Shown: positions 4,315 through 24,555 of the stretch, one piece after another
Layout of the letters: every line of letters starts with the position of its first letter
How positions within the stretch are numbered: position 1 is the first letter of the stretch
Assembly (NCBI GenBank): GCA_029256705.1
Contig: JAQSXK010000007.1
Location: forward strand, 4,606 to 68,605
DNA from: Clostridia bacterium
GTDB taxonomy: Bacteria; Bacillota; Clostridia; TANB77; CAG-465
Reading direction: 5' to 3'
Length of the DNA stretch: 64,000 nucleotides
Notes under the pieces: model-generated
Databases searched by the model: none
The model's input: the letters and a program-made list of their open reading frames with translations, nothing else
Told to the model about the DNA's origin: nothing
Position numbers and translations under genes: made by a program

Positions 4315-4325
4315 ATAATAAAGCA

Positions 4326-4357
4326 GAGGGAGAACGATTATTCAATCGTTCTCCCTC
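4326..4357. terminator. rho-independent terminator (bidirectional hairpin) after the murD-like gene
   Basis: GAGGGAGAACGATT-loop-AATCGTTCTCCCTC perfect 14-bp stem. Confidence 0.6.
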
Positions 4358-4643
4358 CATCTATATTAAATACTAAATTTTGGAAAATCCAAAATTTAGT
4401 ATATTTCAAAACGGTTTTTCTTATATTATTATTTCAATTTATTTTTTAAGTAAGAAAAAACTTCAGTAAACTAATATCTTTAAACACTAGGATCAGTCTT
4501 ATTATTTTTTAAATAATGTGTTATTTTAAATCTCGTATTATCAAACTTCCAAATTTGGGAGTATTAAAAAATTTTAATGAAGCTATTATATCACCAATGG
4601 AAGAAAATGTCAATAGTTTTAGACAATAAAGCAATAGAATATA

Positions 4644-11600: not shown

Positions 11601-13136
11601 ATGTTAGTAAATACAGAAAATAAAGGTTTAAATCTACATACGGTGCCAATAAGAGAAAATGTAAGTGTGTGGATAGAGCAAGACATACTTGTTCCAGATA
11701 CTAAACCAGATGCAATTAAAATAATAAATGTTACAGTTAATCCATATGTAACAGATGTAGAGGTTATGGATAATAAAGTTAAGGTTACGGGTAAGCTTAA
11801 CTATTATGTAATATATAGGACAAATGAAACTAATATGGGTACAAGAGGACTATTCGTATCACTCCCATATACACAAATATTAAATGTCAAAGGTATAAAA
11901 AAAGATACTGATGTTAGAGTAAGACCTATGGTTAAAAATGTTATTTATTCTCTTCCAAATGAGAGAAAAATAGCAATTAAAACTGAGATTATATTTAGAG
12001 TTAAAGGATTAGAATCTACATATATAAACCTGATACAAAGGTTTTCTCCTGATCATAAGGTAGAAACTAAGTTAAGTCAAAATACGTTTAACAATATAAT
12101 AAGAAGTAAATATAATGTTATTGCATCAAGAGAAGATATTATGATTCCAAATGAAAATGAAGATCTATATGAAATATTAAAAGTTGAACCATTTATTATA
12201 AACACAGAATATAAAGAAAGTTATAATAAAATTATGGTTAAAGGTGATATATCTGTTAATCTACTGTATCTAGTAGATAAACAAGAAACTGAAATCAAGA
12301 AAATAACTCTTCAAATACCCTTTACAGGTATGATTGAAATGGATAACATAACAGATAAATCAAAATTCAGCATAGATTTCGTAATAAATGACTTTAATAT
12401 CAGACCTAATATAGAAATGTCTGCTTCAAAAACAATGAGCGTAGATTATCAAATTGGTGTATATGTAAATATGTTTGAACAAGAAGAAATATCATATGTA
12501 GATGACTTTTATAGTGAAGAAAAAAAATTAAAATGTGAACAATGTATCAAAAGAGCAGTTAGAGATGAAATAGTAATACAAAAAAATATAGATATTAAAG
12601 AAACTTTAAATAATATTTTACCGGATAATACAAAATTATTAGATTATACCATTGATACAAGTTACATAGTACTTAAGCAAGTAGCAAATAATGTACATGT
12701 GGATGGTAATGTGAAAATAGGTATTCTAGTTCAAAATATAGATACATTAGAGATTGAAAATAAGGTTGTTGATGTATTAGTAAATGAAGAATATAATTTA
12801 GAAGATGTAAACCAAGATACTAATATCAGTCTTAACATATATGCAGATAAAATAAGTATTTCTCAAACCGGAAATGATATGGATGTAAAACTAAAACTAA
12901 ATTTAGATATAAAAACTGAAAGTATAGTTGATCTTAATGTTTCAGATAATATAGAAGAGGAAGATTTAGATATATCTAATATGGATAGTATGAACATATA
13001 TATAGTAAAACCAAAAGATACATTATGGTCTATAGCTAAAAAATATAATACAACTGTAGAAAAAATAATTCAAACTAATGATTTAACAGATCAAAGTATA
13101 ATTAATGTAGGGCAGAAAATTCTTATTATCAGGTAA
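11601..13136 (+). CDS. DUF3794 repeat / C-terminal LysM domain protein (SipL-like spore morphogenetic protein)
   Basis: 511 aa whose C-terminus 'YIVKPKDTLWSIAKKYNTTVEKIIQTNDLTDQSIINVGQKILI' is a LysM domain. The architecture matches clostridial SipL. Confidence 0.55.
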   Translation: MLVNTENKGLNLHTVPIRENVSVWIEQDILVPDTKPDAIKIINVTVNPYVTDVEVMDNKVKVTGKLNYYVIYRTNETNMGTRGLFVSLPYTQILNVKGIKKDTDVRVRPMVKNVIYSLPNERKIAIKTEIIFRVKGLESTYINLIQRFSPDHKVETKLSQNTFNNIIRSKYNVIASREDIMIPNENEDLYEILKVEPFIINTEYKESYNKIMVKGDISVNLLYLVDKQETEIKKITLQIPFTGMIEMDNITDKSKFSIDFVINDFNIRPNIEMSASKTMSVDYQIGVYVNMFEQEEISYVDDFYSEEKKLKCEQCIKRAVRDEIVIQKNIDIKETLNNILPDNTKLLDYTIDTSYIVLKQVANNVHVDGNVKIGILVQNIDTLEIENKVVDVLVNEEYNLEDVNQDTNISLNIYADKISISQTGNDMDVKLKLNLDIKTESIVDLNVSDNIEEEDLDISNMDSMNIYIVKPKDTLWSIAKKYNTTVEKIIQTNDLTDQSIINVGQKILIIR

Positions 13137-13140
13137 TGAT

Positions 13141-13830
13141 ATGAGATTAAAATATTATACAAGAACATTAAGACAAATGAGTTTAAACAAACCATTTGTC
13201 TTTATTTTTATAACAGTAGTAATTATAATTTCAATTTGTATATATATGTATAGTAAAGCAGCACCAATAATAAATGCTGTATGTGAATCTAATGCTAAAT
13301 ATATTGCCCTAGAAGTAACTAATAAAGCTGTATCTGAAAGTATAGATGATATTAAATATGAAGACTTGGTAATATTAAAACAAGATACAACAGGTAAAAT
13401 AATAGCAATAAACGCTAATGTTATGGAACTGAATAGATTATCTACTAATATATCAACAACTGTATCAGAAAAGTTAGCCAATATAAAGGATAGATATATA
13501 ACAATACCACTTTCCAGCTTATTTAATATGGGACTATTTAGTGGTTATGGACCTAAATTACCACTTAGTATAATTCCTTCTGGAAATGTAACAGCAAAAT
13601 TTAAATCTGAATTTGAAGAAGCTGGTATAAATCAAATAAGACATAGAATATTTATTGAAGTAACTACTAAAGTAAGATTAATAGCGCCGTTTTATACATC
13701 ATCACAAGAGTATATTAATGAGGTTACAGTTGCTGAATATGTTATAGTAGGAGATACACCTAGTACATATTATAACATAACAGGTATAGAAGATTTAAAT
13801 AAAGATACTACAACTAACTTAATAAAATAA
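13141..13830 (+). CDS. yunB: sporulation protein YunB
   Basis: 229 aa with an N-terminal TM and a YunB-like core. Confidence 0.65.
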   Translation: MRLKYYTRTLRQMSLNKPFVFIFITVVIIISICIYMYSKAAPIINAVCESNAKYIALEVTNKAVSESIDDIKYEDLVILKQDTTGKIIAINANVMELNRLSTNISTTVSEKLANIKDRYITIPLSSLFNMGLFSGYGPKLPLSIIPSGNVTAKFKSEFEEAGINQIRHRIFIEVTTKVRLIAPFYTSSQEYINEVTVAEYVIVGDTPSTYYNITGIEDLNKDTTTNLIK

Positions 13831-13922
13831 TAATATATTATTAAGAATATTCTTTAAAACAAATAAATTTTATACATTCCTATTTGAATTTTTATCAATA
13901 AATGGTATAATTCTAACAGGAA

Positions 13923-14654
13923 GTGATAGAATTGAAAAAAAGAATATTCTTAATTGCTATAATAACATTAATTATCCTAATAATAACTTTAACAGTTATA
14001 TATGTCAAAAATATAGGTACTGATCAAAAACAAGAAGAAATAGAAAAGCAAGTAGATGAATTAGAAAATGTAGTAGTTGAAGAACCAAAACCAGAAGTAT
14101 ATAAAGATGATAACCCAATAAAAATTGGTTTATATATAAATAGTAATAATGGTAAAAAATTAATAACAGAATACTCTTCTATATGGAATGCCGAAGAGAT
14201 AATGGGAATGTTTTATGCAATTCCTACAAATGATCCTGTAATTAGTGGAAAATCATTTGAAACTGTTTGGGAAAAGTATTGGAATGAATATTCAAATATT
14301 GAAAAATACAGAATAGGATATAATATTAAATTTACTCTAAATACTGGAGAAATAATTGATCAAAAAATATTAAATCCTGATCATGCATATTTAATGTTTC
14401 CTAAAGTACAATTTTATTTATATGATGATGTTAATTTAATTCCTGGTAGAAGATATTATCACGTAACACAAGGAGAAATGACAGAAAATACACAATGTAC
14501 CTCTGTGAAGATAGTTGGAGATAAATCAACTAAAAATATTATATCACCAATTGAATTAACTGTATATACTTTTGATGGTGAGGAAGACTTTGACCCCATG
14601 ACTGGTAAATATCGCGGAAACAGCTATTATACTATTTTGATTAATAAAAAATAA
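13923..14654 (+). CDS. membrane-anchored hypothetical protein
   Basis: 243-aa ORF with an N-terminal TM and an acidic linker; no recognised family. Confidence 0.5.
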   Translation: MIELKKRIFLIAIITLIILIITLTVIYVKNIGTDQKQEEIEKQVDELENVVVEEPKPEVYKDDNPIKIGLYINSNNGKKLITEYSSIWNAEEIMGMFYAIPTNDPVISGKSFETVWEKYWNEYSNIEKYRIGYNIKFTLNTGEIIDQKILNPDHAYLMFPKVQFYLYDDVNLIPGRRYYHVTQGEMTENTQCTSVKIVGDKSTKNIISPIELTVYTFDGEEDFDPMTGKYRGNSYYTILINKK

Positions 14655-14672
14655 CTAATGAAAGGAAAAAAT

Positions 14673-15044
14673 ATGAATACAATTTTATTGTCTATAAATC
14701 CAGAGTATATAGAAAATATATTTAATGGAATAAAGCAATATGAATATAGAAAAATTAAATGTAGGAAAGATATAGAAAAAATAATAATATATTCTACATA
14801 TCCGGTAAGAAAGGTTGTAGGAGAAGCAAGGGTAGAAAAAATATTAGGAGATACACCAAACAATATATGGAAAATTACAGAAAAATATTCAGGTACTAGT
14901 ATACATTTTTATAACGAATATTTTAAAGGTAGAGAAAAGGCTATAGCATATAAATTAATAGATGTTAAAAAATATAATAAACCTAAACAACTAAGTGAGT
15001 ATGGTATAAAATGTGCACCACAATCTTTTATATACATTAAATAA
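14673..15044 (+). CDS. ASCH (PUA-like) domain protein
   Basis: About 123 aa; the 'ILLSINPEYIENIFNGIKQYEYRK' beta-barrel start is typical of ASCH/YqfB-like proteins. Confidence 0.55.
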   Translation: MNTILLSINPEYIENIFNGIKQYEYRKIKCRKDIEKIIIYSTYPVRKVVGEARVEKILGDTPNNIWKITEKYSGTSIHFYNEYFKGREKAIAYKLIDVKKYNKPKQLSEYGIKCAPQSFIYIK

Positions 15045-15060
15045 ATATAAAAACAAAAGT

Positions 15061-15105
15061 GAAAACACCTTGAAAATATATAGTTTCAAGGTGTTCTTTT
15101 TTTTC
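15061..15105. terminator. bidirectional rho-independent terminator
   Basis: GAAAACACCTTGAAA-loop-TTTCAAGGTGTTCTTTTTTTTC. Confidence 0.65.
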
Positions 15106-15127
15106 TTTACTCACTGGTAAAGTAGTT

Positions 15128-15301
15128 TCATGAAGGTTGTGATGCATTTGTAACATTTTGTTCTTCAATTTGATTTGTTTCATCTTCACTTACAATTTCA
15201 GGTTCCTCATATCCTTGGTAAATTGCACATGACACAACATGACACTCTCCGTTGTAGCAATCTCCTGGTTTACAATTTGGATGATCTTTAATATATGCCA
15301 T
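15128..15301 (-). CDS. small Cys-rich hypothetical protein (58 aa)
   Basis: A GGAGGTG RBS precedes an ATG on the minus strand; the protein 'MAYIKDHPNCKPGDCYNGECHVVSC' is followed by an acidic tail. Confidence 0.4.
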   Translation of the reverse strand: MAYIKDHPNCKPGDCYNGECHVVSCAIYQGYEEPEIVSEDETNQIEEQNVTNASQPS

Positions 15302-15542
15302 ACAAAACACCTCCTTAATTAATACACTTATTAAAGGTAAAATAGAAAATTGAAATATACAGTATAATTATACCATATATTTTATAAAATTCAATATGAT
15401 ATATATAAATATTCCTTATTTTTCCAAATAAATTAATAGTAAGAATTTAGCATTTAAATATACTTAAAAAGAATTACTGTTAATATTTACTTTTATAAAA
15501 ATAAGTTATATAATATTAATAAAAAACAAAAGGAGATTATAA

Positions 15543-16103
15543 ATGGATAACAAAAAAATAGATTTAATCAGTAAAGAAGTATATAAAAGATGTATTAGTG
15601 AAGACAATTTTTTTGGTATAGGAGCATTCTACCATATAGAAGCAGTAGTCAAAAATGCTGTATTTCTTGCAAAAATATATAATGCAGACATAGAAATAGT
15701 TACGCTAGCTGCATGGCTTCATGATATAGCTTCAGTAACAAACTATGAATTATATGAAGATCATCATATACATGGAGTTGAAATTGCAGAAAAAATATTA
15801 TCAGATTTAGAATATGATAATGAAATAATTGAACATGTGAAAAAATGTATATTAAATCATAGAGGAAGCGTATTAAATGAAAAAGAAACAGTAGAAGAAA
15901 AATGCATTGCTGATGCTGATTCAATATCGCATTTTGATAATGTACCATCATTATTTAATCTTGCTTTTGTTGTAAGAAAATATTCAATCAGCGATGGAGA
16001 GAAATTTGTTAAAGATAAACTAATAAGAAGTTACAATAAACTATCTCCTGAAAGTAAAAAAATATATAAGAATAAATATAATAGTGTAATGGAAATATTT
16101 TAG
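15543..16103 (+). CDS. HD-domain phosphohydrolase
   Basis: 'AAWLHDIASV' and 'HHIHGVEIA' give the H...HD...D signature. Confidence 0.75.
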   Translation: MDNKKIDLISKEVYKRCISEDNFFGIGAFYHIEAVVKNAVFLAKIYNADIEIVTLAAWLHDIASVTNYELYEDHHIHGVEIAEKILSDLEYDNEIIEHVKKCILNHRGSVLNEKETVEEKCIADADSISHFDNVPSLFNLAFVVRKYSISDGEKFVKDKLIRSYNKLSPESKKIYKNKYNSVMEIF

Positions 16104-16273
16104 TATGACATTGTATCATATAACATCTTAGTGGATTACAAGTTAAGTTTTTTAATAGTTTTAAATAGTATGTATAACATTTTATATAATTTGACATCAG
16201 GCATATATTTATATGTAAATATATGGTATAATAAGTTTAATAAAAAACTTTATTTTATTGGAGGTGTTAGAAA

Positions 16274-16630
16274 TTGAAAAAAGAAAAAATATATAAAATT
16301 TTACTTGTAATTTCTTTTTTGCCATATGTTTTGTTAATATTAATTTCATTATATCATTCAATTTTTGGGTATGACGTATATACTTTAATATTACCAACAT
16401 ACGTTAAAACAATATATGGTATGGAGGCTTTCATATCAACTTTGTCTTGGAATGCGTTATTATTATGTTTTCTTCCAATTTTACCTATATGTTTGTTATA
16501 TCAAATAATATATTTAACTACCTGTATTATTAACAAAATAAAACATAATAAATATAAACACATTAGTATTTATTTAATTGCAATTTGTGTTGTACTTGTA
16601 GTTTGTGTGCTAATTTTCATTAGACTTTAG
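16274..16630 (+). CDS. hypothetical multi-pass membrane protein
   Basis: 118 aa, three to four hydrophobic helices. Confidence 0.45.
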   Translation: MKKEKIYKILLVISFLPYVLLILISLYHSIFGYDVYTLILPTYVKTIYGMEAFISTLSWNALLLCFLPILPICLLYQIIYLTTCIINKIKHNKYKHISIYLIAICVVLVVCVLIFIRL

Positions 16631-16718
16631 AAAATTGAAAATATTGTTGTTATGTAATTTATAAATAAATTGTGATATAATATAAATTATTAGTAAAAAA
16701 TAAAATTGAGGTGATAGT

Positions 16719-17249
16719 TTGAAAAAATTAAGAAAAATGTTAGGCAAATATAATGATGAACATATGATTCAACTTATGACTCTGATTTCAAGTCAAAGTA
16801 AAGAAACTATTGCTAATTGGTGTATTGATTATGCTGAAAGAGAAATTCTACCAATATACTTAAAGTATTATCCAAATGATTATAGACCTAAAATGGCTTT
16901 AGACGCTTCTCGTGATTGGTTAAAAGGATTAAAGAAACTTCCAGAAGTTAAAAATATAATCTTAAACGAATGTCATCAGGCAGCGCGAGAAGCAGAGAAT
17001 AATCCAGCAGCTCAAGCAGCGGCAAGAACTCTTGGACAAGCGGCAGCTTGTTTTCATACTCCAACACATTCAATGGGATTAGCATTCTATGGTGGAGCAG
17101 CCGTTGCTTATGATAGATTAGGACTTGAAGCTAGTAATGGGGAATATGAAGAGGTAGCCTATCAGGAAGTTATTAAAATGACTAATGAGTTAAAGAAAGT
17201 TGCAGTAGAAAATGAACCAAATAAGGCAAAATTAAATTGGCACTGTTAA
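16719..17249 (+). CDS. hypothetical protein (Ala-rich, locally GC-rich; possibly immunity-type)
   Basis: 176 aa with an 'AQAAARTLGQAAACFHTPTHSMGLAFYGGAAVAY' core. GC is clearly above the flanks; a terminator lies at 17271-17305. Confidence 0.45.
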   Translation: MKKLRKMLGKYNDEHMIQLMTLISSQSKETIANWCIDYAEREILPIYLKYYPNDYRPKMALDASRDWLKGLKKLPEVKNIILNECHQAAREAENNPAAQAAARTLGQAAACFHTPTHSMGLAFYGGAAVAYDRLGLEASNGEYEEVAYQEVIKMTNELKKVAVENEPNKAKLNWHC

Positions 17250-17270
17250 TAAATTATAATAATAAATATA

Positions 17271-17305
17271 AAAACCCAGTAAATTTAATCATTTACTGGG
17301 TTTTT
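17271..17305. terminator. rho-independent terminator
   Basis: AAAACCCAGTAAAT-ttaatc-ATTTACTGGGTTTTT. Confidence 0.65.
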
Positions 17306-17315
17306 ATAAATAATT

Positions 17316-17333
17316 TTTATCTTTTTTGAAAAT
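17316..17333. repeat. degenerate copy of the rpsI 3'-end core (TTATCTTTTTTGAAAATA) - leftmost cassette junction
   Basis: Compare the rpsI end TTATCTCTTTGAAAATTGT at 24162-24180. Confidence 0.35.
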
Positions 17334-17344
17334 AAATGCAATAT

Positions 17345-17373
17345 ATAGTTGACATTATGTAAGATATAGTATA
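17345..17373 (+). promoter_or_regulatory. sigma-A promoter TTGACA-17-TATAAT of cassette 1
   Basis: TTGACAttatgtaagatatagtaTATAAT. Confidence 0.55.
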
Positions 17374-17400
17374 TAATATTATTATCAAATGAGGTGAAAT

Positions 17401-17601
17401 ATGAAGAATAGGAAAATGAAAATAGCACGATTAGAACTAGATATGAAACAAGAAGATCTAGCAACTATTGTAGGAGTTACACGCCAAACAATTGGTATGA
17501 TTGAGTCTGGAAATTATAATCCTACTTTAAATCTTTGTATTGCAATCTGCAAGGCACTTGGAAAAACTTTGGATGAATTATTTTGGGAGGTAGAGAAATG
17601 A
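17401..17601 (+). CDS. XRE-family HTH transcriptional regulator
   Basis: 66 aa with the classic Cro/C1 HTH 'QEDLATIVGVTRQTIGMIESG'. Confidence 0.85.
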   Translation: MKNRKMKIARLELDMKQEDLATIVGVTRQTIGMIESGNYNPTLNLCIAICKALGKTLDELFWEVEK

Positions 17602-18086
17602 AAAAACAAATTATACAAGACGAAAGAGTAGTAGCACAAAAACAAAAAATATTAAGTGAATCATATGTCATTTTAATGATAATTCTTATTATATCTATAT
17701 TTATACAGCAAAATTTATTAAATGCACCTTTTAAGCAATATGCAGTTGAATTTATATGTTTTTTTGGAATATCAATTTACATTTTAATACGTAATTTAAC
17801 ACTTGGAATTGATATGTTTGGGGAGAAGAAAAAGGCAAAAATAATAGCTCTTAGAAATAGTATAATAGCTGGAATTGCTGTAACCGTTGTAACAGGTATT
17901 TCAAACTATATTGAATACGCTGAAAAATATGAAGGAAAATTAATTTTTTTTGTAATTTCACTATTGATTACATTTGTTAGTGCAGTTATTTGCACATTTG
18001 TTGTTTTTGCATTGATAGGTTTTATTAATAATATGAAAATAAATCAACTTGAAAAAAAATTAGATGAAGAAGAAAAAAGGAATTAA
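17598..18086 (+). CDS. membrane protein partner of the XRE regulator
   Basis: Overlaps the XRE stop; three TM helices; GGGAGG RBS. Confidence 0.55.
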   Translation: MKKQIIQDERVVAQKQKILSESYVILMIILIISIFIQQNLLNAPFKQYAVEFICFFGISIYILIRNLTLGIDMFGEKKKAKIIALRNSIIAGIAVTVVTGISNYIEYAEKYEGKLIFFVISLLITFVSAVICTFVVFALIGFINNMKINQLEKKLDEEEKRN

Positions 18087-18124
18087 TGGCTAAATTAGAA
18101 TTTATGAGTCAACTAACAATATAT

Positions 18125-18159
18125 AAAAAAGCTTTAAAACACTGTGTTTGGGGCTTTTT
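18125..18159. terminator. cassette terminator hairpin
   Basis: AAAAAAGCTTTAAAACAC-tg-TGTTTGGGGCTTTTT. Confidence 0.5.
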
Positions 18160-18167
18160 ATATTTTA

Positions 18168-18195
18168 TTGTCTTACATTTTGATAGTTGTAAATT
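18168..18195. repeat. cassette junction repeat (TTGTCTTACATTTTGATAGTTGTAAATT), homologous to the rpsI 3'-end core
   Basis: Aligns with TTGCTTATCTCTTTGATAGTTACAAAT of the other junctions. Confidence 0.45.
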
Positions 18196-18221
18196 AAGTC
18201 TTATCAGTAATTATACATATT

Positions 18222-18256
18222 TTGTATATTATGAGTATGCTAAGTGAGAGTTTGAT
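18222..18256. repeat. GTATATTA-containing junction motif (degenerate copy)
   Basis: TTTGTATATTATGAGTATGCTAAGTGAGAGTTTGATAG. Confidence 0.4.
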
Positions 18257-18284
18257 AGTGTCTTGTACTAAATAGTCCTTGAAA

Positions 18285-18313
18285 TATTATGTAAAATATG
18301 ATATAATACATAT
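18285..18313 (+). promoter_or_regulatory. sigma-A promoter TTGAAA-17-TATAAT of cassette 2
   Basis: TTGAAAtattatgtaaaatatgaTATAAT. Confidence 0.55.
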
Positions 18314-18343
18314 AGTTAAATTTATATTAATGGAGGGATGAAT

Positions 18344-18712
18344 ATGTCATTGACAATTTATCGAGTGTGTCAACCGGTGATTATCCGGGAAGAGAATATT
18401 ATTGATGTAAAATCTGTAACTTTGGCTTGTAATTTTTCATACTCATTGAGTTATTCGGCTGTAGAATTTGTCAAAAAAGCAGGTGAAAATGCAGTTGCCT
18501 ATGTGGAAGAAAGCTGCGGTGCTAAATTACTATTGCTATGCAATGCGGAGACGGGTGAAGTTTTTATACCAGATGATTATCCTGAAGTAATAAGGTTTGA
18601 AATAAAGCAACAGTTTATAGCATATTTGCTATCTAACATTCAATTTAAAGACATAAAATTCATGAAATTCAAACGAGATAGACTGATCGAACAAAAAGCT
18701 AACAAACTTTGA
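18344..18712 (+). CDS. hypothetical protein
   Basis: 122-aa ORF with a GGAGGG RBS. Confidence 0.45.
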   Translation: MSLTIYRVCQPVIIREENIIDVKSVTLACNFSYSLSYSAVEFVKKAGENAVAYVEESCGAKLLLLCNAETGEVFIPDDYPEVIRFEIKQQFIAYLLSNIQFKDIKFMKFKRDRLIEQKANKL

Positions 18713-18733
18713 AAAAATATTTAGGAGGTTTTT

Positions 18734-19183
18734 ATGTCTAATAAAGAAAAACGGATTTTTAAAAAGGGTGAGGTATTATATGTAATTGATTGTTGGGGCA
18801 CTACATGCGGCATGCATGCTTTTGAGGCTTCAGCTAGAATTATTCATATTGATGAAGAAATAGGAAGTTTCGATGCAGTTCTATATGGTGATACATATCA
18901 GAGATATAATGTTAAAGATTATGGTCGTTTGATTTTTGATGATGAATCAGAAGCGCTAAAAGCTGCATATAAATTACCAAAGCCTACTTCACTTGTATAT
19001 CAACTAATAGGTAATAGAGTTTTTAAAAAAATTGTTGTAGGAGTACGAAATGAAAACATTAATAACTTCACAGATCTAGTTGTTCATTTAAATAAAGGGA
19101 AAAGCGTGCCTATAGGAAGAATAGGCATTGAACTTTTTCTTGATGAATCATCTGCGAGAGAAAAAATAAGAAAAATTGATTAA
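18734..19183 (+). CDS. hypothetical protein
   Basis: 149-aa ORF with an AGGAGG RBS. Confidence 0.5.
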   Translation: MSNKEKRIFKKGEVLYVIDCWGTTCGMHAFEASARIIHIDEEIGSFDAVLYGDTYQRYNVKDYGRLIFDDESEALKAAYKLPKPTSLVYQLIGNRVFKKIVVGVRNENINNFTDLVVHLNKGKSVPIGRIGIELFLDESSAREKIRKID

Positions 19184-19251
19184 TTTTCTTGGTTTTTCTA
19201 AAAGAACTTATATATTTGAGTAGAGTTTTTCAAAAACTTCAACTGTAAAAA

Positions 19252-19285
19252 GAAAAAGCACCAAACCATTGAGGTTGGTGCTTTT
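19252..19285. terminator. cassette terminator hairpin (CCAAACCATTG-loop family)
   Basis: AAAAAGCACCAAACC-attga-GGTTGGTGCTTTTT. Confidence 0.6.
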
Positions 19286-19298
19286 TCTATATATTTTA

Positions 19299-19322
19299 TT
19301 ATCTCTTTGATAGTCACAAACG
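19299..19322. repeat. rpsI 3'-end core copy TTATCTCTTTGATAGTCACAAACG
   Basis: 12/12 identity to TTATCTCTTTGA at the rpsI stop region. Confidence 0.6.
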
Positions 19323-19348
19323 TAGTAATATCAGTAGTTATATAGATT

Positions 19349-19379
19349 TTTGCATATTATATGTATATTACGTAGAGAG
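19349..19379. repeat. GTATATTA quasi-palindromic motif TTTGCATATTATATGTATATTACGTAGAGAG
   Basis: Conserved at 6 junctions. Confidence 0.55.
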
Positions 19380-19479
19380 TTTTATAGAGTTAGAGTAATC
19401 ATATTTTTTATATATTAAATAGAAAATGTAAAAAACTATTTACATTAAATTCATTTTATGGTATTATAAAAATGTATAC

Positions 19480-19508
19480 TTCAAATTTATTTAATATTAT
19501 GATATAAT
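19480..19508 (+). promoter_or_regulatory. sigma-A promoter TTCAAA-17-TATAAT plus the conserved leader AATTAAACAAATGATAATTTGTATAGGAGG
   Basis: Spacing is 17 bp; the leader/RBS is shared with cassettes 4-6. Confidence 0.55.
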
Positions 19509-19549
19509 CAATTAAACAAATGATAATTTGTATAGGAGGTAATCGAAAT

Positions 19550-20011
19550 ATGGCAAAGGCAGAATGGTATGATGGAAAAGAAGGAAAGGCTGAACATTTA
19601 GTATATCTAAATAGTAAGGCAAAAGAATTAGAAAAATTAGAATGTAAAGAAAAAACAATGATTATTAGAGGTGCAGCAGGCAAAAAATGTCCTTTAGGTG
19701 GTCGTGCTAAATTAAATGATAATATATATTTTGTGGAAACTGGTGGAGATATGACAGTTACTCATAAAGGTATTATTTCAAATATAATAGAAAGTGAAAA
19801 AATGACTCCAGAGGAATCTGTTAATTTCATAAAAAAATATGAAAAACAGTTAAATCTATCAAAAGATCAATATGATAGATGGGCAGGTAAAAAGTTTCTT
19901 GCCGTTTATGAAATATCTAATTTAGAAAAGATTATTCCTTTTAAATATAACAGAGAGAACAATATGGATGATTGGATTATTACAGATGATATTAACAAAA
20001 TAAAAATATAA
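19550..20011 (+). CDS. hypothetical protein (cassette 3 cargo)
   Basis: 153 aa starting 'MAKAEWYDGKEGK...'; AGGAGG RBS. Confidence 0.5.
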   Translation: MAKAEWYDGKEGKAEHLVYLNSKAKELEKLECKEKTMIIRGAAGKKCPLGGRAKLNDNIYFVETGGDMTVTHKGIISNIIESEKMTPEESVNFIKKYEKQLNLSKDQYDRWAGKKFLAVYEISNLEKIIPFKYNRENNMDDWIITDDINKIKI

Positions 20012-20065
20012 TAAATTACAATTTATGAGTTAATAAAAAATATATATAAAATCAAACTATCAAAT

Positions 20066-20102
20066 ATAAAAAAGCCCCAAACCATTGCGGTTGAGGCTTT
20101 TG
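20066..20102. terminator. cassette terminator hairpin
   Basis: AAAAAAGCCCCAAACC-attgc-GGTTGAGGCTTTTG. Confidence 0.6.
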
Positions 20103-20116
20103 TTGTATGTTTTTGC

Positions 20117-20140
20117 TTATCTCTTTGGTAATTGCAAATA
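20117..20140. repeat. rpsI 3'-end core copy TTATCTCTTTGGTAATTGCAAATA
   Basis: 11/12 match to the core; the flanking TTGC also matches the rpsI context. Confidence 0.55.
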
Positions 20141-20165
20141 TATTATTATCAATGTTTATTGGCAT

Positions 20166-20198
20166 CTTTGTATATTATACGTATATTACGTAGAAAAT
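20166..20198. repeat. GTATATTA motif CTTTGTATATTATACGTATATTACGTAGAAAAT
   Basis: Tandem GTATATTA x2. Confidence 0.55.
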
Positions 20199-20244
20199 TT
20201 TATGGGACTTTGCAGATACCTCTTTTTCATAATAAAGTGTATAC

Positions 20245-20273
20245 TTGAAATTTATATGAAATTATGATATACT
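20245..20273 (+). promoter_or_regulatory. sigma-A promoter TTGAAA-17-TATACT of cassette 4
   Basis: TTGAAAtttatatgaaattatgaTATACT. Confidence 0.55.
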
Positions 20274-20309
20274 TAGTTAATTAAATGGTAATTCATGGAG
20301 GGAAAGTAA

Positions 20310-20786
20310 ATGTTTAAAATGAAATATATTATTTTAGGAATAGTAATTGTTATAATTGGAATATTTATTTGTGTATTTCTTTATGATAAAAAAGGTCTAA
20401 TTTTAGAAAATGAATCTAAATTGATTTACGAAATAAGTGAATGTCCAAACTCTAAGGTTGTTGCAAACGAAAATGAAAAAGTATATTATTATATTAAAAT
20501 TTATCAAGAAAAGGATAATACAATTATAGTAAAGGCAACATCTAATTCAGAATTAATGAAAGGCTTGCAATATACAATTAAATATGATAAAGTAATTACA
20601 CAAGATAATATAGAAATAAAATGGTTAACTTTAATGGGACAAAATAATGCAAGTGAGAATAATCAGGCAGCAATCGCAGATATAATTATATCAGATAATA
20701 AAGAAGTAGTTAGCGAAAGAAAGATAAATTTTGTATCAAAAATTATAGAGATAATAGTTGATAGAATTAATAAAAATAGCAAGTAA
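20310..20786 (+). CDS. membrane-anchored hypothetical protein (cassette 4 cargo)
   Basis: 158 aa with an N-terminal TM; GGAGGG RBS. Confidence 0.5.
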   Translation: MFKMKYIILGIVIVIIGIFICVFLYDKKGLILENESKLIYEISECPNSKVVANENEKVYYYIKIYQEKDNTIIVKATSNSELMKGLQYTIKYDKVITQDNIEIKWLTLMGQNNASENNQAAIADIIISDNKEVVSERKINFVSKIIEIIVDRINKNSK

Positions 20787-20815
20787 ACTATAATTTATGA
20801 GTTAGTCAATAATAT

Positions 20816-20850
20816 AAAAAGCACTAAATATAATATTTGGTGCTTTTAAG
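20816..20850. terminator. cassette terminator hairpin 1
   Basis: AAAAGCACTAAATAT-aat-ATTTGGTGCTTTT. Confidence 0.5.
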
Positions 20851-20890
20851 ATATGTTGATGTTATTAATAAGTATGAAGAAACATATAAT

Positions 20891-20927
20891 AAAAAACCCG
20901 AAAATCGTTGTGATTTCTGGGTTTTTA
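20891..20927. terminator. cassette terminator hairpin 2
   Basis: AAAAAACCCGAAAATC...GATTTCTGGGTTTTT. Confidence 0.5.
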
Positions 20928-20938
20928 AGCTTTTCTTC

Positions 20939-20962
20939 TCTATCTCTTTGATAGTTACAAAT
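20939..20962. repeat. rpsI 3'-end core copy TCTATCTCTTTGATAGTTACAAAT
   Basis: 11/12 match to the core. Confidence 0.55.
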
Positions 20963-20988
20963 CCATTATTATCAGTAAATGTATAGAT

Positions 20989-21027
20989 TTTTGTATATTA
21001 TGTGCATATTGTGTAGAGAGCTTTATA
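20989..21027. repeat. GTATATTA motif TTTGTATATTATGTGCATATTGTGTAGAGAGCTTTATAG
   Basis: Conserved junction motif. Confidence 0.5.
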
Positions 21028-21098
21028 GCTTCTAAAAAATTAATAAATATAATTATTTACTTTAGATTATGTTTATTTATTATTTAGTAAAATTAGCT

Positions 21099-21126
21099 TT
21101 GAAAATCAGTTTGAACATGATATAAT
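21099..21126 (+). promoter_or_regulatory. sigma-A promoter TTGAAA-16-TATAAT of cassette 5
   Basis: TTGAAAatcagtttgaacatgaTATAAT; followed by the leader TAGTAATTTGTGAGTAGAGGAAAG. Confidence 0.45.
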
Positions 21127-21185
21127 TATACTGATTAAACAAATTTAATAAATAGTAATTTGTGAGTAGAGGAAAGTGAAATTAT

Positions 21186-21734
21186 ATGATGCGATATGTA
21201 GCTTTATTAAGGGGAATAAATATTAGTGGTAAAAATAAAATAGCGATGTTAGAATTAAAAAAAGAATTTGAAAAATTAGATTTTTTTGAAGTTCTTACTT
21301 ATATCAATAGTGGAAATATTATTTTTTCTAGTAATATAGAGGATACAGACATTATAGAAAATAATATTAAATTAATGATACAAAATAAATTTAATTTAAA
21401 TATTCCTGTATTTATAATAACAATAGAAAAATTAGCAATGATATTAAAAAATGCACCAGATTGGTGGGGAAATGATAACAAAGAAATATATGACAATATT
21501 ATTTTTATAATTCCGCCTACAACATATGAAGAAGTATTCTTAGAAATTGGCGAGGCTAAACAAGAGTATGAAAAAATAAGTAACTATAAAAATGTAATTT
21601 ATTGGTCTTTTGACTTGAAATCTTATTCTAAAACAAATTGGATTAAGACAGCAAATTCAAAAATAAATAATAAAGTTACAATAAGAACAGCAAATACTAT
21701 GAAAAAATTATTTGAACTTAGTAAAACAGTGTAA
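21186..21734 (+). CDS. DUF1697 family protein
   Basis: The N-terminus 'MMRYVALLRGINISGKNKIAMLELK' is the hallmark DUF1697 signature (RGINVGG). Confidence 0.7.
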   Translation: MMRYVALLRGINISGKNKIAMLELKKEFEKLDFFEVLTYINSGNIIFSSNIEDTDIIENNIKLMIQNKFNLNIPVFIITIEKLAMILKNAPDWWGNDNKEIYDNIIFIIPPTTYEEVFLEIGEAKQEYEKISNYKNVIYWSFDLKSYSKTNWIKTANSKINNKVTIRTANTMKKLFELSKTV

Positions 21735-21792
21735 AAGACAAATTAAAATTTAATTGATTAGTTATAAAAATAGTAATTTGTGGAGGTGTAAG

Positions 21793-22140
21793 ATGTTTAA
21801 TGAAATATGTATATACGAAGTAAAATTAAATAAACAAGATGAAGTTGAAGAACTTATGAGAGAAGTTGCTGATTTTTATAAATTCCAACCGGGTGTTATT
21901 GAAGTTAAGTATATAAAAAGAACTCATAGGCAAAAAGACTTTAATACAGTTAAAGAAGGTCAAGTACCGGTTGAATTAACTAGATATGTAGATAAAGTTA
22001 CTTATGTGTTATATTGGGTATTAGAAAGTAAAGAAGCACACGCAGCAATATATCCAATTGCTCTAGAAAAGTTTTATAAAAGATGGACTAGATGTTTAAC
22101 TACAATGCCTAGAATTATATTAGGCGAAAATATTGTTTAA
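21793..22140 (+). CDS. hypothetical protein (possibly ABM/Dabb-like small alpha+beta protein)
   Basis: 115 aa; the GGAGGTG RBS and leader resemble the cassette leader. Confidence 0.4.
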   Translation: MFNEICIYEVKLNKQDEVEELMREVADFYKFQPGVIEVKYIKRTHRQKDFNTVKEGQVPVELTRYVDKVTYVLYWVLESKEAHAAIYPIALEKFYKRWTRCLTTMPRIILGENIV

Positions 22141-22157
22141 GAAAGGAAGTCAGAGTT

Positions 22158-22481
22158 ATGCATGAAATATTATTAACATTATTAATAGGATTTATTGTAG
22201 GAATTATAGATATAGCACCAATGATTAAAATGAAACTTGATAGATACGCTTTATCATCTGCATTTACTTTTTATTTTATTATGCCTTTTATTATTTATAA
22301 TTTAGATTTTTTAAATACTTTATGGTGGTTAAAAGGGGAACTTATAACCCTCATATTATCTATTCCTACAACAATTCTTATAGCAAAAACAGATAAGAAA
22401 GGTTGTATCCCAGTTGTTATTATGTCTATTGTACTTGGAACTATAATAGGTATAGCTGGACATTTATTAGGGATTATGTAA
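22158..22481 (+). CDS. hypothetical membrane protein
   Basis: 107 aa with four hydrophobic segments. Confidence 0.5.
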   Translation: MHEILLTLLIGFIVGIIDIAPMIKMKLDRYALSSAFTFYFIMPFIIYNLDFLNTLWWLKGELITLILSIPTTILIAKTDKKGCIPVVIMSIVLGTIIGIAGHLLGIM

Positions 22482-22517
22482 AAGATAAATTACAATTTAT
22501 AAGTTAATTAATAATAT

Positions 22518-22551
22518 AAAAAAGCTCCAAACCATTGAGTTTGGGGCTTTT
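22518..22551. terminator. cassette terminator hairpin
   Basis: AAAAAAGCTCCAAAC-cattgag-TTTGGGGCTTTT. Confidence 0.6.
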
Positions 22552-22562
22552 GAACATCTTTT

Positions 22563-22593
22563 TGCTTATCTCTTTGAAAATTGTAAATAAAGT
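22563..22593. repeat. rpsI 3'-end copy TTGCTTATCTCTTTGAAAATTGTAAATAAAG (22/23 identity to 24158-24180)
   Basis: TTATCTCTTTGAAAATTGT is identical to the rpsI terminal 19-mer. Confidence 0.7.
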
Positions 22594-22616
22594 ATTATCA
22601 GTGTTTACTATTATAT

Positions 22617-22645
22617 TTGTATATTATATGTATATTACGTATAGT
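22617..22645. repeat. GTATATTA motif TTTGTATATTATATGTATATTACGTATAG
   Basis: Conserved junction motif. Confidence 0.55.
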
Positions 22646-22689
22646 AATTTAGAAAATTTTTAAAGTAGTTCTTGTTAAAAAATGTATAC

Positions 22690-22718
22690 TTGAGATTTAT
22701 ATCATATTGTGATATACT
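22690..22718 (+). promoter_or_regulatory. sigma-A promoter TTGAGA-17-TATACT of cassette 6
   Basis: Followed by the leader AATTAAACATATAGTGATTTGTAAAGGAGAG. Confidence 0.5.
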
Positions 22719-22765
22719 TAATTAAACATATAGTGATTTGTAAAGGAGAGATTGTTTTGGATAGA

Positions 22766-23320
22766 ATGAGATTTGAATTATATTGGAGTTATTATTTGTC
22801 AATTGAAAAAATGTTAAGTAATACAAGTCAATATGTATCACCTTCAAGTGAAAATAAAAAAACATATTCTGACGAATTTACAAAAATAATATTATTATCA
22901 TGTTCAGAAATAGACTCTATATTAAAATTAATTTGCAAATGTAAAGGAATAGAATATGATCAAAGAAAATATAATATGAATATTTATTCCGAAGTTTTAT
23001 TGCAATTTAAAGATATTAAAAAAATTTCTTACGCTTCAAATTCAAATACCTCGATGAATGAAAATAGTCTAAGTGTTACTCCATTTGAAAAATTAAATAG
23101 CAATACAAAATACGGGGGATTAAGTTGGTGGGAAGATTATCAATCGCTAAAACATAATAGATTAGATAATGCAGAAAAAGGAAACCTATTCAATGCGGTA
23201 TCTTCAATTTCAGCACATTACATTTTATTAAGATTTTTAATAGAATTTTTAGATGAGTATGCTGGAAAAAGCTATGTAATAGATCATAATCTTTCTGAAT
23301 ATTTAATACCATGTGTATAA
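22766..23320 (+). CDS. hypothetical protein (upstream partner of the HEPN-like gene)
   Basis: About 185 aa; AAAGGAGAG RBS. The start is the ATG at 22766 or the TTG at 22757. Confidence 0.45.
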   Translation: MRFELYWSYYLSIEKMLSNTSQYVSPSSENKKTYSDEFTKIILLSCSEIDSILKLICKCKGIEYDQRKYNMNIYSEVLLQFKDIKKISYASNSNTSMNENSLSVTPFEKLNSNTKYGGLSWWEDYQSLKHNRLDNAEKGNLFNAVSSISAHYILLRFLIEFLDEYAGKSYVIDHNLSEYLIPCV

Positions 23321-23382
23321 TGATAATATAATACTGGTTACAATTCTTAGGATATATAAACATATTAGGAGGGAGATATTTA

Positions 23383-23916
23383 ATGGATACAGTATTAGAG
23401 TATATGATTAATAAAGAATGGGAAAAGGATTATAAAGCCAAAAGAAAAATTTATTTAATAAATTTAGCTGAAAAAAGTAAAAGAGAAAAAGATATATCAA
23501 ATAAAATAGGAAGTATGTTAATATATAATCAAGTTATTGAACAAATATTAAAAGAGGTAATTATATGTAGTGTAGGTTATATAAAAGCAGAAATATGGCC
23601 AAGTTCTATACAGTTAGATATAAATTTAGATAGGGCAACTTTTGGTGTGTTGATAGAATATTTTAAACAATATGCTGTAAAAGAATACAATAGAGATATA
23701 ATATTAGAATATTTACAAAAATTAAATATAGAAAGAAATAAAGTTGTACACAAACTTTTTGATATTGAGGATATAAGAAAATTAAGTAAACAACTAAATG
23801 AATATGGTGATTTAGCATATGAATTAATAATACTTTTAAACGAATATTATGATCAAATTTGCTGGCGATTATATGACCTAAATGATAGAGTTGATTTCGA
23901 GTCTTTAAGTGAATAA
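23383..23916 (+). CDS. HEPN-like protein (Rx4H motif 'RNKVVH')
   Basis: 177 aa, all-alpha character, with 'ERNKVVHKLF' matching the HEPN Rx4-6H motif; AGGAGGGAG RBS. Confidence 0.45.
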   Translation: MDTVLEYMINKEWEKDYKAKRKIYLINLAEKSKREKDISNKIGSMLIYNQVIEQILKEVIICSVGYIKAEIWPSSIQLDINLDRATFGVLIEYFKQYAVKEYNRDIILEYLQKLNIERNKVVHKLFDIEDIRKLSKQLNEYGDLAYELIILLNEYYDQICWRLYDLNDRVDFESLSE

Positions 23917-23970
23917 AAGGAATTAAACATGGCAGTGGATATATGAAATAAATAACTATAATTATAAGTG

Positions 23971-24013
23971 TATTTGTATATTGCTTGTATATTATGTGTA
24001 TATTGTATAAAAA
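23971..24013. repeat. GTATATTA motif (three tandem GTATATT units) immediately left of the rpsI terminator
   Basis: TATTTGTATATTGCTTGTATATTATGTGTATATTGTATAAAAAC. Confidence 0.5.
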
Positions 24014-24107
24014 CTTTAGTAATATTATAATTGATTAAATGTACTTAAATTAACATTTATGATTAAATTGAAATTATATGAATAGCTATAAGTAATATAT
24101 AATAAAA

Positions 24108-24147
24108 AACCTTAAAAGTATTGATACTTCTAAGGTTTTTAATGCTT
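24108..24147 (-). terminator. rpsI rho-independent terminator
   Basis: AAAACCTTAGAAGTATCAATACTTTTAAGGTTTTTT read on the minus strand. Confidence 0.7.
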
Positions 24148-24162
24148 CTTGAAAAAGTTTGA

Positions 24163-24555
24163 TTATCTCTTTGAAAATTGTGGTGCTTTTCTTGCTTTCT
24201 TAAGACCATATTTTCTTCTTTCTTTAACTCTTGAATCTCTAGTTAGTAAACCATTTCTTTTTAGAACTGTACGAGTATCTAAGTCAGTTGTTGAAAGTGC
24301 TTTTGCAATACCATGAGCAATAGCTCCTGCTTGACCTGCAAATCCACCACCATGAACTGTAGCCTCAACATCATATTTTTCCATTAAGTTTGCTACGTTA
24401 AAAGGTTTTAATATTATTGCTTTTAATGTATCTAGGTTAAATACTTCGTTAATGTCTTTTTTATTTATAGTTATTTTACCTGTACCTGGTATTATGTTTA
24501 CTCTTGCAATAGATGATTTTCTTTTACCTGTTGCATAAATATATTCTTTTGCCAT
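24163..24555 (-). CDS. rpsI: 30S ribosomal protein S9
   Basis: 'ATGKRKSSIARV...GGGFAGQAGAIAHGIAKAL...RDSRVKERRKYGLKKARKAPQFSKR' is near-identical to the S9 consensus. Confidence 0.95.
   Translation of the reverse strand: MAKEYIYATGKRKSSIARVNIIPGTGKITINKKDINEVFNLDTLKAIILKPFNVANLMEKYDVEATVHGGGFAGQAGAIAHGIAKALSTTDLDTRTVLKRNGLLTRDSRVKERRKYGLKKARKAPQFSKR

Follow-up and report, generated by a model that had tools for sequence, protein, structure and literature searches.

How do small groups of unrelated genes come to be lined up behind a ribosomal protein gene, each group starting with a copy of that gene's own 3′ end, when no gene for a recombinase lies among them? This question is raised by a 64,000-nt stretch of DNA (here called the window; contig JAQSXK010000007.1 of assembly GCA_029256705.1, positions 4,606 to 68,605) from an uncultured, AT-rich gut Clostridium of ~25% GC, in which six cassettes, A to F, occupy positions 17315-24162 between rpsI (ribosomal protein S9) and a block of older accessory genes, all of them on the + strand and rpsI on the − strand. 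The explanation we favor, with a probability of about 0.6, is that small non-autonomous elements were integrated site-specifically, one by one, at the rpsI 3′ end by a recombinase supplied in trans, and that the inserted units then decayed, fused and reassorted.

Related loci (given L numbers here) were found by exact-protein look-ups with RpsI and its close homologues. The identical RpsI protein has matches only in metagenome assemblies and metagenome-assembled genomes (MAGs) labelled Clostridia, and an RpsI scan of genome contigs gave, among the matches listed, mostly distant taxa and two 88% relatives. The relatives share rplM-rpsI, EAL/HD, phosphorylase, radical SAM, cotF and spoVA genes on the rpsI side and yunB-sipL-ypeB-sleB-bofA on the other, and their DNA homology to the window ends at about 13800, at yunB; since yunB stands at 13141-13830 in the window, the variable interval is ~13.8-24.2 kb. 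Two independent assemblies (L002 and L185) contain the window's array in identical form, which rules out an assembly artefact.

One scaffold behind copies of the rpsI end

Each unit consists, from left to right, of a terminator, a spacer of ~20 nt, a copy of the rpsI end (the core), ~25 less conserved nt and a set of short boxes, after which come 50-110 variable nt, a near-consensus promoter with an extended -10, the leader AAACAAATnnnnATTTGTnnAGGAGG and one to three open reading frames (ORFs); in four of the six window units the 14-bp palindrome TAAATTnnAATTTA stands immediately 3′ of the stop codon. The consensus of the rpsI-end copies is TTATCTCTTTGATAGTTACAAAT, and junction J5 and rpsI itself read TTATCTCTTTGAAAATTGT. 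When up to one mismatch is allowed, TTATCTCTTTGA is present eight times in the window (1.57 expected by chance), and five of these copies lie at 19299, 20117, 20940, 22566 and 24163, the last being the rpsI stop. The sequence TATCTCTTTG is invariant in 13 junctions from seven loci, is present at the rpsI ends read in the window, L001, L005, L092, L102, L111 and L125, and lies within an imperfect dyad, TTTGTTTATC-TCTTTGA-TAGTTACAAA. A repeat search found families of four to five copies for the terminator plus core, the GTATATTA boxes, the promoter plus leader and the 3′ motif (four copies, at 18090, 20011, 20783 and 22485), and a profile of the core and the boxed P arm to its right matched at 19296 (E 9e-22), 20938 (5e-21), 20114 (2e-19), 22563 (1e-14) and 18179 (9e-07) and, in the 64 kb, nowhere beyond these five junctions.

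The core scan, the repeat families and the profile search thus agree with the sequence-only reading that preceded this analysis, which had placed copies of the rpsI end at these positions and had counted 22 of 23 nt identical between 22563-22585 and 24158-24180, a count that we obtain as well; J0 (17315-17339) is a degenerate remnant only, and both J0 and J1 have decayed. That reading had also seen a sigma-A promoter in each unit, and the region's top promoter-like sites (10/12 or better, most of them with the extended TG; starts in Table 1) are indeed distributed in this way, one per cassette. What it took for a GTATATTA quasi-palindrome is in fact a set of two to three direct repeats, 11 bp from start to start, of the form TTTGYATATTAnnnGYATATTAC in the P arm. 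Paired boxes occur six times in the window, all on the + strand and within 19352-23987. Many junctions have a single box, TTTGTATATTCTGTTTATCTC, between terminator and core, and three boxes are present on the left (P′) arm in L019, L013 and window cassette F and, in degenerate form, in cassette H of L001, which encodes a complete cyclic-oligonucleotide-based antiphage signalling system (CBASS).

The terminator hairpins keep their pairing through compensatory changes, and the terminator of the repeated unit is homologous to the one that adjoins rpsI in several relatives. The rpsI-adjacent position holds a CCAAACCATTG-type hairpin in L001, L102 and L125; the window has instead the hairpin at 24104-24140, which resembles that of L019. 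All junctions have, at a constant distance from the core, a hairpin with compensatory changes, and the array resembles integrons in size and cassette length; this is what might be seen if single-stranded DNA moved through a folded site, as with integron attC or HUH/Y1 systems, the conserved hairpin ~20 nt from the core being the feature recognised. We consider this very improbable, since hairpin plus T run is the ordinary form of an intrinsic terminator and rpsI itself has a homologous one beside it, the junctions are conserved in sequence and not, as attC is, in structure alone, they have no RYYYAAC/GTTRRRY pairs (none within 50-150 nt of each other anywhere in 17000-24400), and the window ORFs scanned include no intI or Y1 transposase gene.

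The copies are short, AT-rich, intergenic and numerous, and in these respects they resemble a dispersed repetitive extragenic element of the REP, BOX, RUP or MITE-like kind that would have nothing to do with rpsI. This explanation is contradicted by the distribution of the copies, which are all in one orientation, are absent from the 64-kb window outside 17.3-24.2 kb and from the rplM side of rpsI in ~15 related 20-kb loci, and so are confined to the rpsI-yunB interval; they belong to no Rfam family (at E up to 1 only sub-threshold chance matches were returned), and their core co-varies with the rpsI end (below).

Junctions and strain differences at the rpsI end

When gene order is compared across relatives, as the sequence-only reading had proposed, it proves not to be fixed; the content of the rpsI-yunB interval differs in nearly every lineage between the same flanks, and cassettes are present in some and absent in others. 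L001, whose RpsI is identical and whose core DNA is 95.6% identical, shares only the distal part with the window, namely the Imm5-like gene and cassettes A and B, and differs from it on the rpsI-proximal side, where it has a cassette encoding 194-aa and 150-aa proteins (cassette G) and then the type II CBASS, which adjoins rpsI. At 95-96% RpsI identity, L113 and L102 (95%) encode 436-aa and 118-aa proteins, an MBL hydrolase, a 153-aa protein, and HD and Rce1-like proteins, and they have only the first gene of cassette B, behind an intact junction; L111 (95%) has a single CYTH gene, L110 (96%) two genes, and L117 (95%) DUF5131, GNAT, AAA_18 and one other gene. More distant loci hold an Arr-ms gene among their contents (L180, 92%; L178, 90%), three single-gene cassettes for DUF5677, Ppx-GppA and HAD proteins, each behind its own junction (L125, 89%; E 1e-18 to 1e-21), or one PDC-S01 (AAA_14/DUF4143) gene behind a junction (L005, 88%). 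In L019, a more distant Clostridiaceae MAG, a methyltransferase gene is the cargo, after a junction, two boxes and a promoter. In all, at least 25 cassettes, from eight or more lineages, have this unit layout. An empty site is present in the human gut P0037 lineage (RpsI 91%), in which 85 bp, containing one terminator, separate the stop codons of rpsI and yunB.

The units are flanked by direct repeats of the rpsI 3′ end and the gene is left intact, and three comparisons locate the boundary. First, L092 reads TTTTTGCTTATCTCTTTGAAAATTGT followed by GGTGC of rpsI, and the window reads the same TTTTTGCTTATCTCTTTGAAAATTGT followed by AAATAAAG of cassette F; the left side of the window is the same as L092 up to AAAATTGT and then passes into the cassette F P arm, and the core recurs at rpsI with GTTTGA on its left, so that cassette F lies exactly within the 19-nt core. 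Second, rpsI of L019 ends in TTATCTCTTACTAAATT, with the serine codon AGT and not TCA, and the junction 1 kb downstream has the same 17 nt, then ACAAAAG and two boxes; the L019 junction thus copies the variant of its own host, and the core follows the host rpsI sequence. Third, to the left of the rpsI core the terminators differ among the window, L001, L102, L111 and L118, while rpsI to the right is constant. At the other end of the array, the most distal junction of L113 and of L125 consists of the yunB terminator, the core and a P arm, which is the layout expected of a B′-O-P junction.

In two samples (3300042923 and SRR35179801) the long rpsI contigs end at the rpsI stop/core (L003 at 10393 and L004 at 6467), and cassette F is a separate contig of 1.6-1.9 kb (L187 and L188). 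Because the shared 19-mer is shorter than the usual assembly k-mers, these breaks look like heterogeneity within the sample, short of proof, and they suggest that mixed array variants are present in both.

Several other observations concern this site. An IMG/VR provirus end (IMGVR_UViG_2524614727_000001; L176, 8650-9000) carries tail fibre, amidase-SH3 lysin and SocA/Panacea genes and, after them, a terminator, a 20-nt copy of the rpsI end that stands without an rpsI ORF, and then cas9; the arrangement looks like what a prophage inserted at the rpsI of another Firmicute would leave at its far junction. The J0 terminator, which follows the Imm5-like gene, resembles the yunB-type terminators of L113 (15990-16020), L125 (13770-13805) and L118 (7515-7550), despite the 3.4 kb between it and yunB in the window, and, relative to the distal junction, homologues of the HD and Rce1-like genes are on opposite sides in the window and L113. 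In L118-L124 (RpsI 95%; for example L118 7495-8900) an insertion sequence (IS) of the IS3 family (HTH_28 and rve) lies ~100 nt past the rpsI terminator, and all seven contigs end in it or just after it; as these loci have a yunB-type terminator, the site may otherwise be empty. L005 has, left of its single junction, a ~110-nt duplicate of the 3′ end of its AAA_14/DUF4143 gene (4279-4400 versus 2790-2900), which is left over from a previous copy of that cassette. The Arr-ms family genes (the rifampin ADP-ribosyltransferase family) of L178 (11084-11966) and L180 (6058-6944) stand beside a DUF5301 gene; arr genes are also found among known integron cassettes. L006, a relative of 88% RpsI identity without the cassette scaffold, has three GTTTAACTTTAACAAGAGTTGTATTTAAAT copies with mini-CRISPR-like spacing downstream of rpsI (12850-13000). 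Two further candidates were rejected as chance matches, a box pair in L008, which falls inside the sipL coding region, and a core match in L177.

On the explanation that we favor, the rpsI-yunB interval would be an attachment site into which non-autonomous elements of 0.8-1.6 kb were integrated successively. The circular form of such an element would carry a core that matches the last 11-19 nt of rpsI exactly or almost exactly, a P arm of two to three direct GYATATTA(C) repeats, a strong sigma-A promoter, the conserved leader and ribosome-binding site (RBS), one to four cargo genes, the 14-bp palindrome after the stop codon, in some cassettes three more boxes, and a terminator that would later serve rpsI. 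A crossover within TATCTCTTTG that joins this attP-like site to the end of rpsI would insert the element and rebuild the gene end. Each insertion would push older cassettes toward yunB, so internal junctions would be P′-core-P hybrids; and as the enzyme is not encoded in the array it must, if this is correct, act in trans. The architecture, an imperfect-dyad core with repeated arm boxes, is most like that of lambda-type tyrosine integrases, which suggests an enzyme of that kind; we infer the recombinase, its class and any activity at the present day. Afterwards junctions would decay (J1 and J0), deletions would fuse neighbors (cassette E), and recombination in the scaffolds would reassort arms, promoters and cargo.

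Cargo and mosaic scaffolds

The features of the interval are collected in Table 1. Pfam recognises only the XRE helix-turn-helix (HTH) and DUF6773 proteins of cassette A and the DUF1697 protein of cassette E among the cargo, none of the nine cargo proteins of cassettes B-F was matched by PADLOC, and a sequence search of the PDB was uninformative. The defense or immunity character that the sequence-only reading gave to the window's cargo is therefore not borne out there, and its "HEPN-like" label for cassette F stays unverified, since an R-x4-H motif is visible in only one of the two proteins (187 and 177 aa) and neither has a family match in Pfam, PADLOC or the PDB sequence search. Defense systems are among the cargo of some relatives (the complete type II CBASS, PDC-S01 and PDC-M30B/M41B-like DUF5131), as are plainly non-defense genes (CYTH, Ppx-GppA, HAD, GNAT, NmrA and Arr-family). 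The accessory genes at 13831-17266 have promoters and no recognisable junctions, their presence and order vary in L113 and L001, and they may be old, decayed cassettes.

Table 1. Positions in the window of the cassettes, their parts and the flanking features of the rpsI-yunB interval.
Feature	Position	Strand	Parts or basis
yunB, conserved distal flank	13141-13830	+	position and length as in Spore_YunB genes of relatives
Other accessory genes of the variable interval	13831-17266	+	243-aa membrane, 128-aa, 60-aa (− strand), HD, 118-aa membrane and Imm5-like proteins
Terminator at distal end of recognisable array (J0)	17267-17308		terminator scan
Cassette A	17315-18167	+	core remnant 17315-17339, promoter 17349-17377, XRE HTH 17401-17601, DUF6773 17598-18086, palindrome 18091-18104, terminator 18124-18159
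Cassette B	18168-19298	+	decayed core 18168-18194, boxes 18221-18245, promoter 18279-18307, ORFs 18344-18712 (122 aa) and 18734-19183 (149 aa), terminator 19253-19286
Cassette C	19299-20116	+	core 19299-19321, boxes 19349-19379, promoter 19480-19508, leader, 153-aa ORF 19550-20011, palindrome 20012-20025, terminator 20067-20103
Cassette D	20117-20939	+	core, boxes 20167-20197, promoter 20245-20273, membrane-anchored 158-aa ORF 20310-20786, palindrome-like motif 20784-20797, two terminators
Cassette E, first half	20940-22565 (whole)	+	boxes 20990-21020, promoter 21099-21126, DUF1697 21189-21734, palindrome remnant joined to leader remnant ~21737-21790
Cassette E, second half	20940-22565 (whole)	+	ORFs 21793-22140 (115 aa) and 22158-22481 (107 aa), palindrome 22486-22499, terminator 22517-22551
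Cassette F	22566-24162	+	core 22566-22584, boxes 22616-22639, promoter 22690-22718, leader, ORFs 22757-23320 (187 aa) and 23383-23916 (177 aa)
Three GTATATT boxes, cassette F P′ arm	23976-24008	+	repeat family D3 and box-pair scan; arrangement matches L019 and L013
Bidirectional terminator adjoining rpsI, from cassette F	24104-24140		terminator scan; differs between strains
Core at rpsI stop, TTATCTCTTTGAAAATTGT	24163-24181		last 19 nt of rpsI; proximal junction, cassette F P′ arm joined to rpsI; same as 22566-22584
rpsI (ribosomal protein S9, 130 aa)	24163-24555	−	ORF list; exact protein on contigs annotated Ribosomal_S9

The genes of cassette E are as the sequence-only reading gave them (DUF1697 and two small genes), and it is their assignment to a single unit that fails: the DUF1697 unit runs from its 3′ palindrome straight into the leader of a second unit (repeat family D16), and the cassette is a deletion fusion of two. 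In L092 the genes for the 115-aa and 107-aa proteins stand alone behind their own junction and directly adjoin rpsI. The promoter-to-palindrome module of cassette C (19464-20027) is 93-94% identical to L113/L102, compared with ~80% for core genes. Its 153-aa protein belongs to a family (UniRef name ASCH domain-containing) that is 75-93% identical across many Firmicutes, including Erysipelothrix, and a homologue in GCA_031556235.1 is an ordinary gene upstream of rplM-rpsI; because the family is so highly conserved and an ordinary gene elsewhere, we did not count the identity of cassette C as clear evidence of horizontal transfer.

Unrelated cargo can also stand behind one and the same scaffold. 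About 175 nt of P arm, promoter and leader are ~93% identical between cassette G of L001 and the DUF5677 cassette of L125, and the homology ends just before the RBS, the 194-aa and DUF5677 proteins being unrelated; the window's J2 and L092 have P arms of 91% identity, beyond which promoter and cargo differ. Such mosaics, together with the placement of cassette C (below) and the fusion in cassette E, indicate recombination within the scaffolds besides whatever acts at the core, and this recombination, whether homologous, illegitimate or at two palindromes that bracket the ORFs, has acted. These palindromes are ACAAAT-nnnn-ATTTGT in the leader before the RBS and TAAATTnnAATTTA after the stop; they are seen at 19509-19545, 20012-20025, 22486-22499 and 18091-18104 in the window, at 16089-16270 in L001 and at 11260-11452 in L125. 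Where the same scaffold has different cargo, homology stops at them, and they may be a second exchange point or regulator sites.

The mosaics raise the question of whether any dedicated enzyme is needed. An ancestral unit of rpsI end, terminator and promoter might have been duplicated at a hot spot, its cargo swapped and arrays exchanged by homologous or illegitimate recombination in the conserved scaffolds and flanking genes, for example after transformation, with the scaffolds kept as terminator, promoter and insulator modules or as regulator binding sites. The reassortment seen in L001 versus L125 and in J2 versus L092, the end of cassette C homology at the 3′ palindrome, the deletion fusions and the lack of a recombinase among the window ORFs scanned all accord with this. 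It leaves unexplained why every junction begins with rpsI coding sequence, why cassette F is bounded exactly at the 19-nt core, why the L019 junction core matches the codon variant of its host's rpsI, and why distal junctions combine a yunB terminator with a core and a P arm. Furthermore, scaffold copies within one genome are only 62-83% identical, which makes them a poor RecA substrate, and the variation of the box-to-promoter spacing (~50 to 110 nt) argues against an operator. General recombination as the sole agent thus seems unlikely to us.

Several points weigh against integration at the core by an enzyme supplied in trans. The sequence-only reading had reported no integrase or recombinase in the 64 kb, and Pfam searches with most window ORFs of at least 150 aa outside the conserved flanks likewise gave no integrase, resolvase or transposase (five ORFs matched nothing); nor is a recombinase found beside any array examined, the sole related match in precomputed Pfam annotation of ~11 arrays being the rve domain of the IS3-family element in L118-L124. 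No integrase-bearing element with this junction was found in phage, plasmid or IMG/VR data: blastn of the junction against PLSDB plasmids and INPHARED phages returned nothing, and an IMG/VR scan returned no match to the degenerate core and only partial, chance-like matches to the box pattern. No circular form or clean excision product was seen in MAG or metagenome contigs, and every comparative sequence is itself a MAG or metagenome contig. The arrays of L117, L178 and L110 have few or no recognisable junctions, and the boxes on the two arms share one orientation. Finally, recombination at the core alone does not explain the reassortment of scaffolds and cargo, in which unrelated genes follow the same P arm, promoter and leader and P arms are recombined with promoters, or the position of cassette C (19464-20027) in L113, where it has neither core nor arms and lies on the side of cassette B that faces yunB.

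The same idea has a more ambitious form. The locus would then be a dedicated gene-capture platform of Clostridia, similar to an integron in its working and different in its construction, in which self-expressed cassettes of ~1 kb with a lambda-like attP (a core that mimics rpsI, with arm boxes) are inserted and excised at rpsI by an unlinked chromosomal recombinase and their cargo is also swapped, at the two bracketing palindromes, into a constant promoter/terminator scaffold; we put this forward as a tentative possibility and think it rather less probable than serial integration as such.

Known systems and meaning

The target itself has precedent, as the sequence-only reading had pointed out: in streptococci the rpsI 3′ end is used by three families of tyrosine integrases (Tyr_4, Tyr_5 and Tyr_7), with tandem accretion (PMC5357655). 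The streptococcal integrative and conjugative elements (ICEs), integrative and mobilizable elements (IMEs) and cis-mobilizable elements (CIMEs; a concept of Pavlovic 2004 and Bellanger 2011, as cited in PMC5357655) share with the Clostridia array the same target gene end, direct repeats that rebuild it, tandem stacking, decayed members without an integrase, and hybrid att sites at internal junctions. They differ in size (~10-40 kb, compared with 0.8-1.6 kb), and the Clostridia units, whose host is an uncultured Clostridium, have a uniform promoter, leader, palindrome and terminator scaffold and no trace of an integrase, relaxase or oriT. Searches of plasmids, phages, IMG/VR and metagenomes found no parental ICE or IME, and transfer genes have left no remnants in the arrays. 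A CIME in the strict sense is a deletion derivative of an ICE or IME that has the same att sites, mobilised in cis once an element of this kind integrates beside it; without a known parent, we do not file the array as one. Of the serial accretion of CIME-like or integron-like units originally proposed, repeated insertion, polymorphic content and an empty site hold, and classification as a strict CIME or an integron is not supported.

The cassettes could nevertheless be the last remnants of full-size integrase-bearing IMEs, ICEs or prophages, each of which lost everything but one att-proximal accessory module, so that nothing ever moved as a cassette. Accretion followed by deletion is documented at streptococcal rpsI (PMC5357655), a prophage that duplicates the same rpsI end exists, and the IS3-family element and the decayed junctions show that the region erodes. 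Independent deletions would not, however, leave a single layout, with P arm, promoter and leader conserved at one end and palindrome, boxes and terminator at the other, in so many cassettes and lineages, and no fragment of an integrase, relaxase or phage gene was found in any of the relatives' arrays examined, so we regard this history as improbable.

Serial integration with stacking is also known from the tycheposon islands of Prochlorococcus, where repeated integration at one site, a tRNA gene, pushes older elements inward and leaves partial copies of the target gene and cargo-only remnants; tycheposons carry their own tyrosine recombinase and replication genes and, unlike the Clostridia array, form no miniature uniform cassettes (bioRxiv 10.1101/2020.12.28.424599).

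Like an integron, the array has cassettes of ~1 kb with unrelated cargo at one chromosomal site and a strain-variable content, in which distal cassettes are common to the window and L001 and rpsI-proximal ones differ. Unlike an integron, it has no intI, no attI beside an integrase and no attC core sites, each cassette has its own promoter in place of Pc, its junctions show sequence conservation, and the attachment site lies where a housekeeping gene ends. The array appears to work like an integron and is not one, as it lacks intI and attC and has its own promoters; to our knowledge integrons have not been reported in Firmicutes. Staphylococcal cassette chromosome (SCC) elements, pseudo-SCC elements and composite islands are formed by serial integration at the rlmH (orfX) 3′ end by large serine recombinases (Ccr). 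There, too, the integration site sequence is repeated at each junction and members without a recombinase rely on Ccr in trans, but the target is a different gene and the units are much larger, heterogeneous and without a common expression scaffold. The pdif modules, which are mostly on plasmids, are bounded by 28-bp XerC/XerD sites in alternating orientation. These and other Xer-dependent elements resemble the array in being small cargo modules without a recombinase of their own, the enzyme being encoded elsewhere, but no dif-like site is present at the array junctions: the best match in a search with a B. subtilis dif sequence had 9 mismatches in 28 positions and lay off the junctions.

The principle of stacking at a gene 3′ end with non-autonomous members is thus already known. 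In the literature we found no description of a miniature, uniform cassette with its own promoter, leader and terminator, of the spread of such cassettes across several lineages of uncultured Clostridia, of arrays of them in the complete absence of a linked recombinase, or of scaffold and cargo reassortment within such arrays. The way in which small accessory genes are assembled at fixed sites in Firmicutes is largely undescribed, and this locus offers a compact, sequence-defined system in which to study it, with a junction of ~100-170 bp, an invariant 10-nt stretch as the candidate crossover, and repeated arm boxes. New accessory and defense genes can be mined from metagenomes with the junction profile as a tag, and for AT-rich Clostridia the scaffold provides a portable expression cassette of natural origin. 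For the organisms themselves, the array explains a strain-variable region of gut Clostridia that holds CBASS, candidate defense genes and an Arr-family gene.

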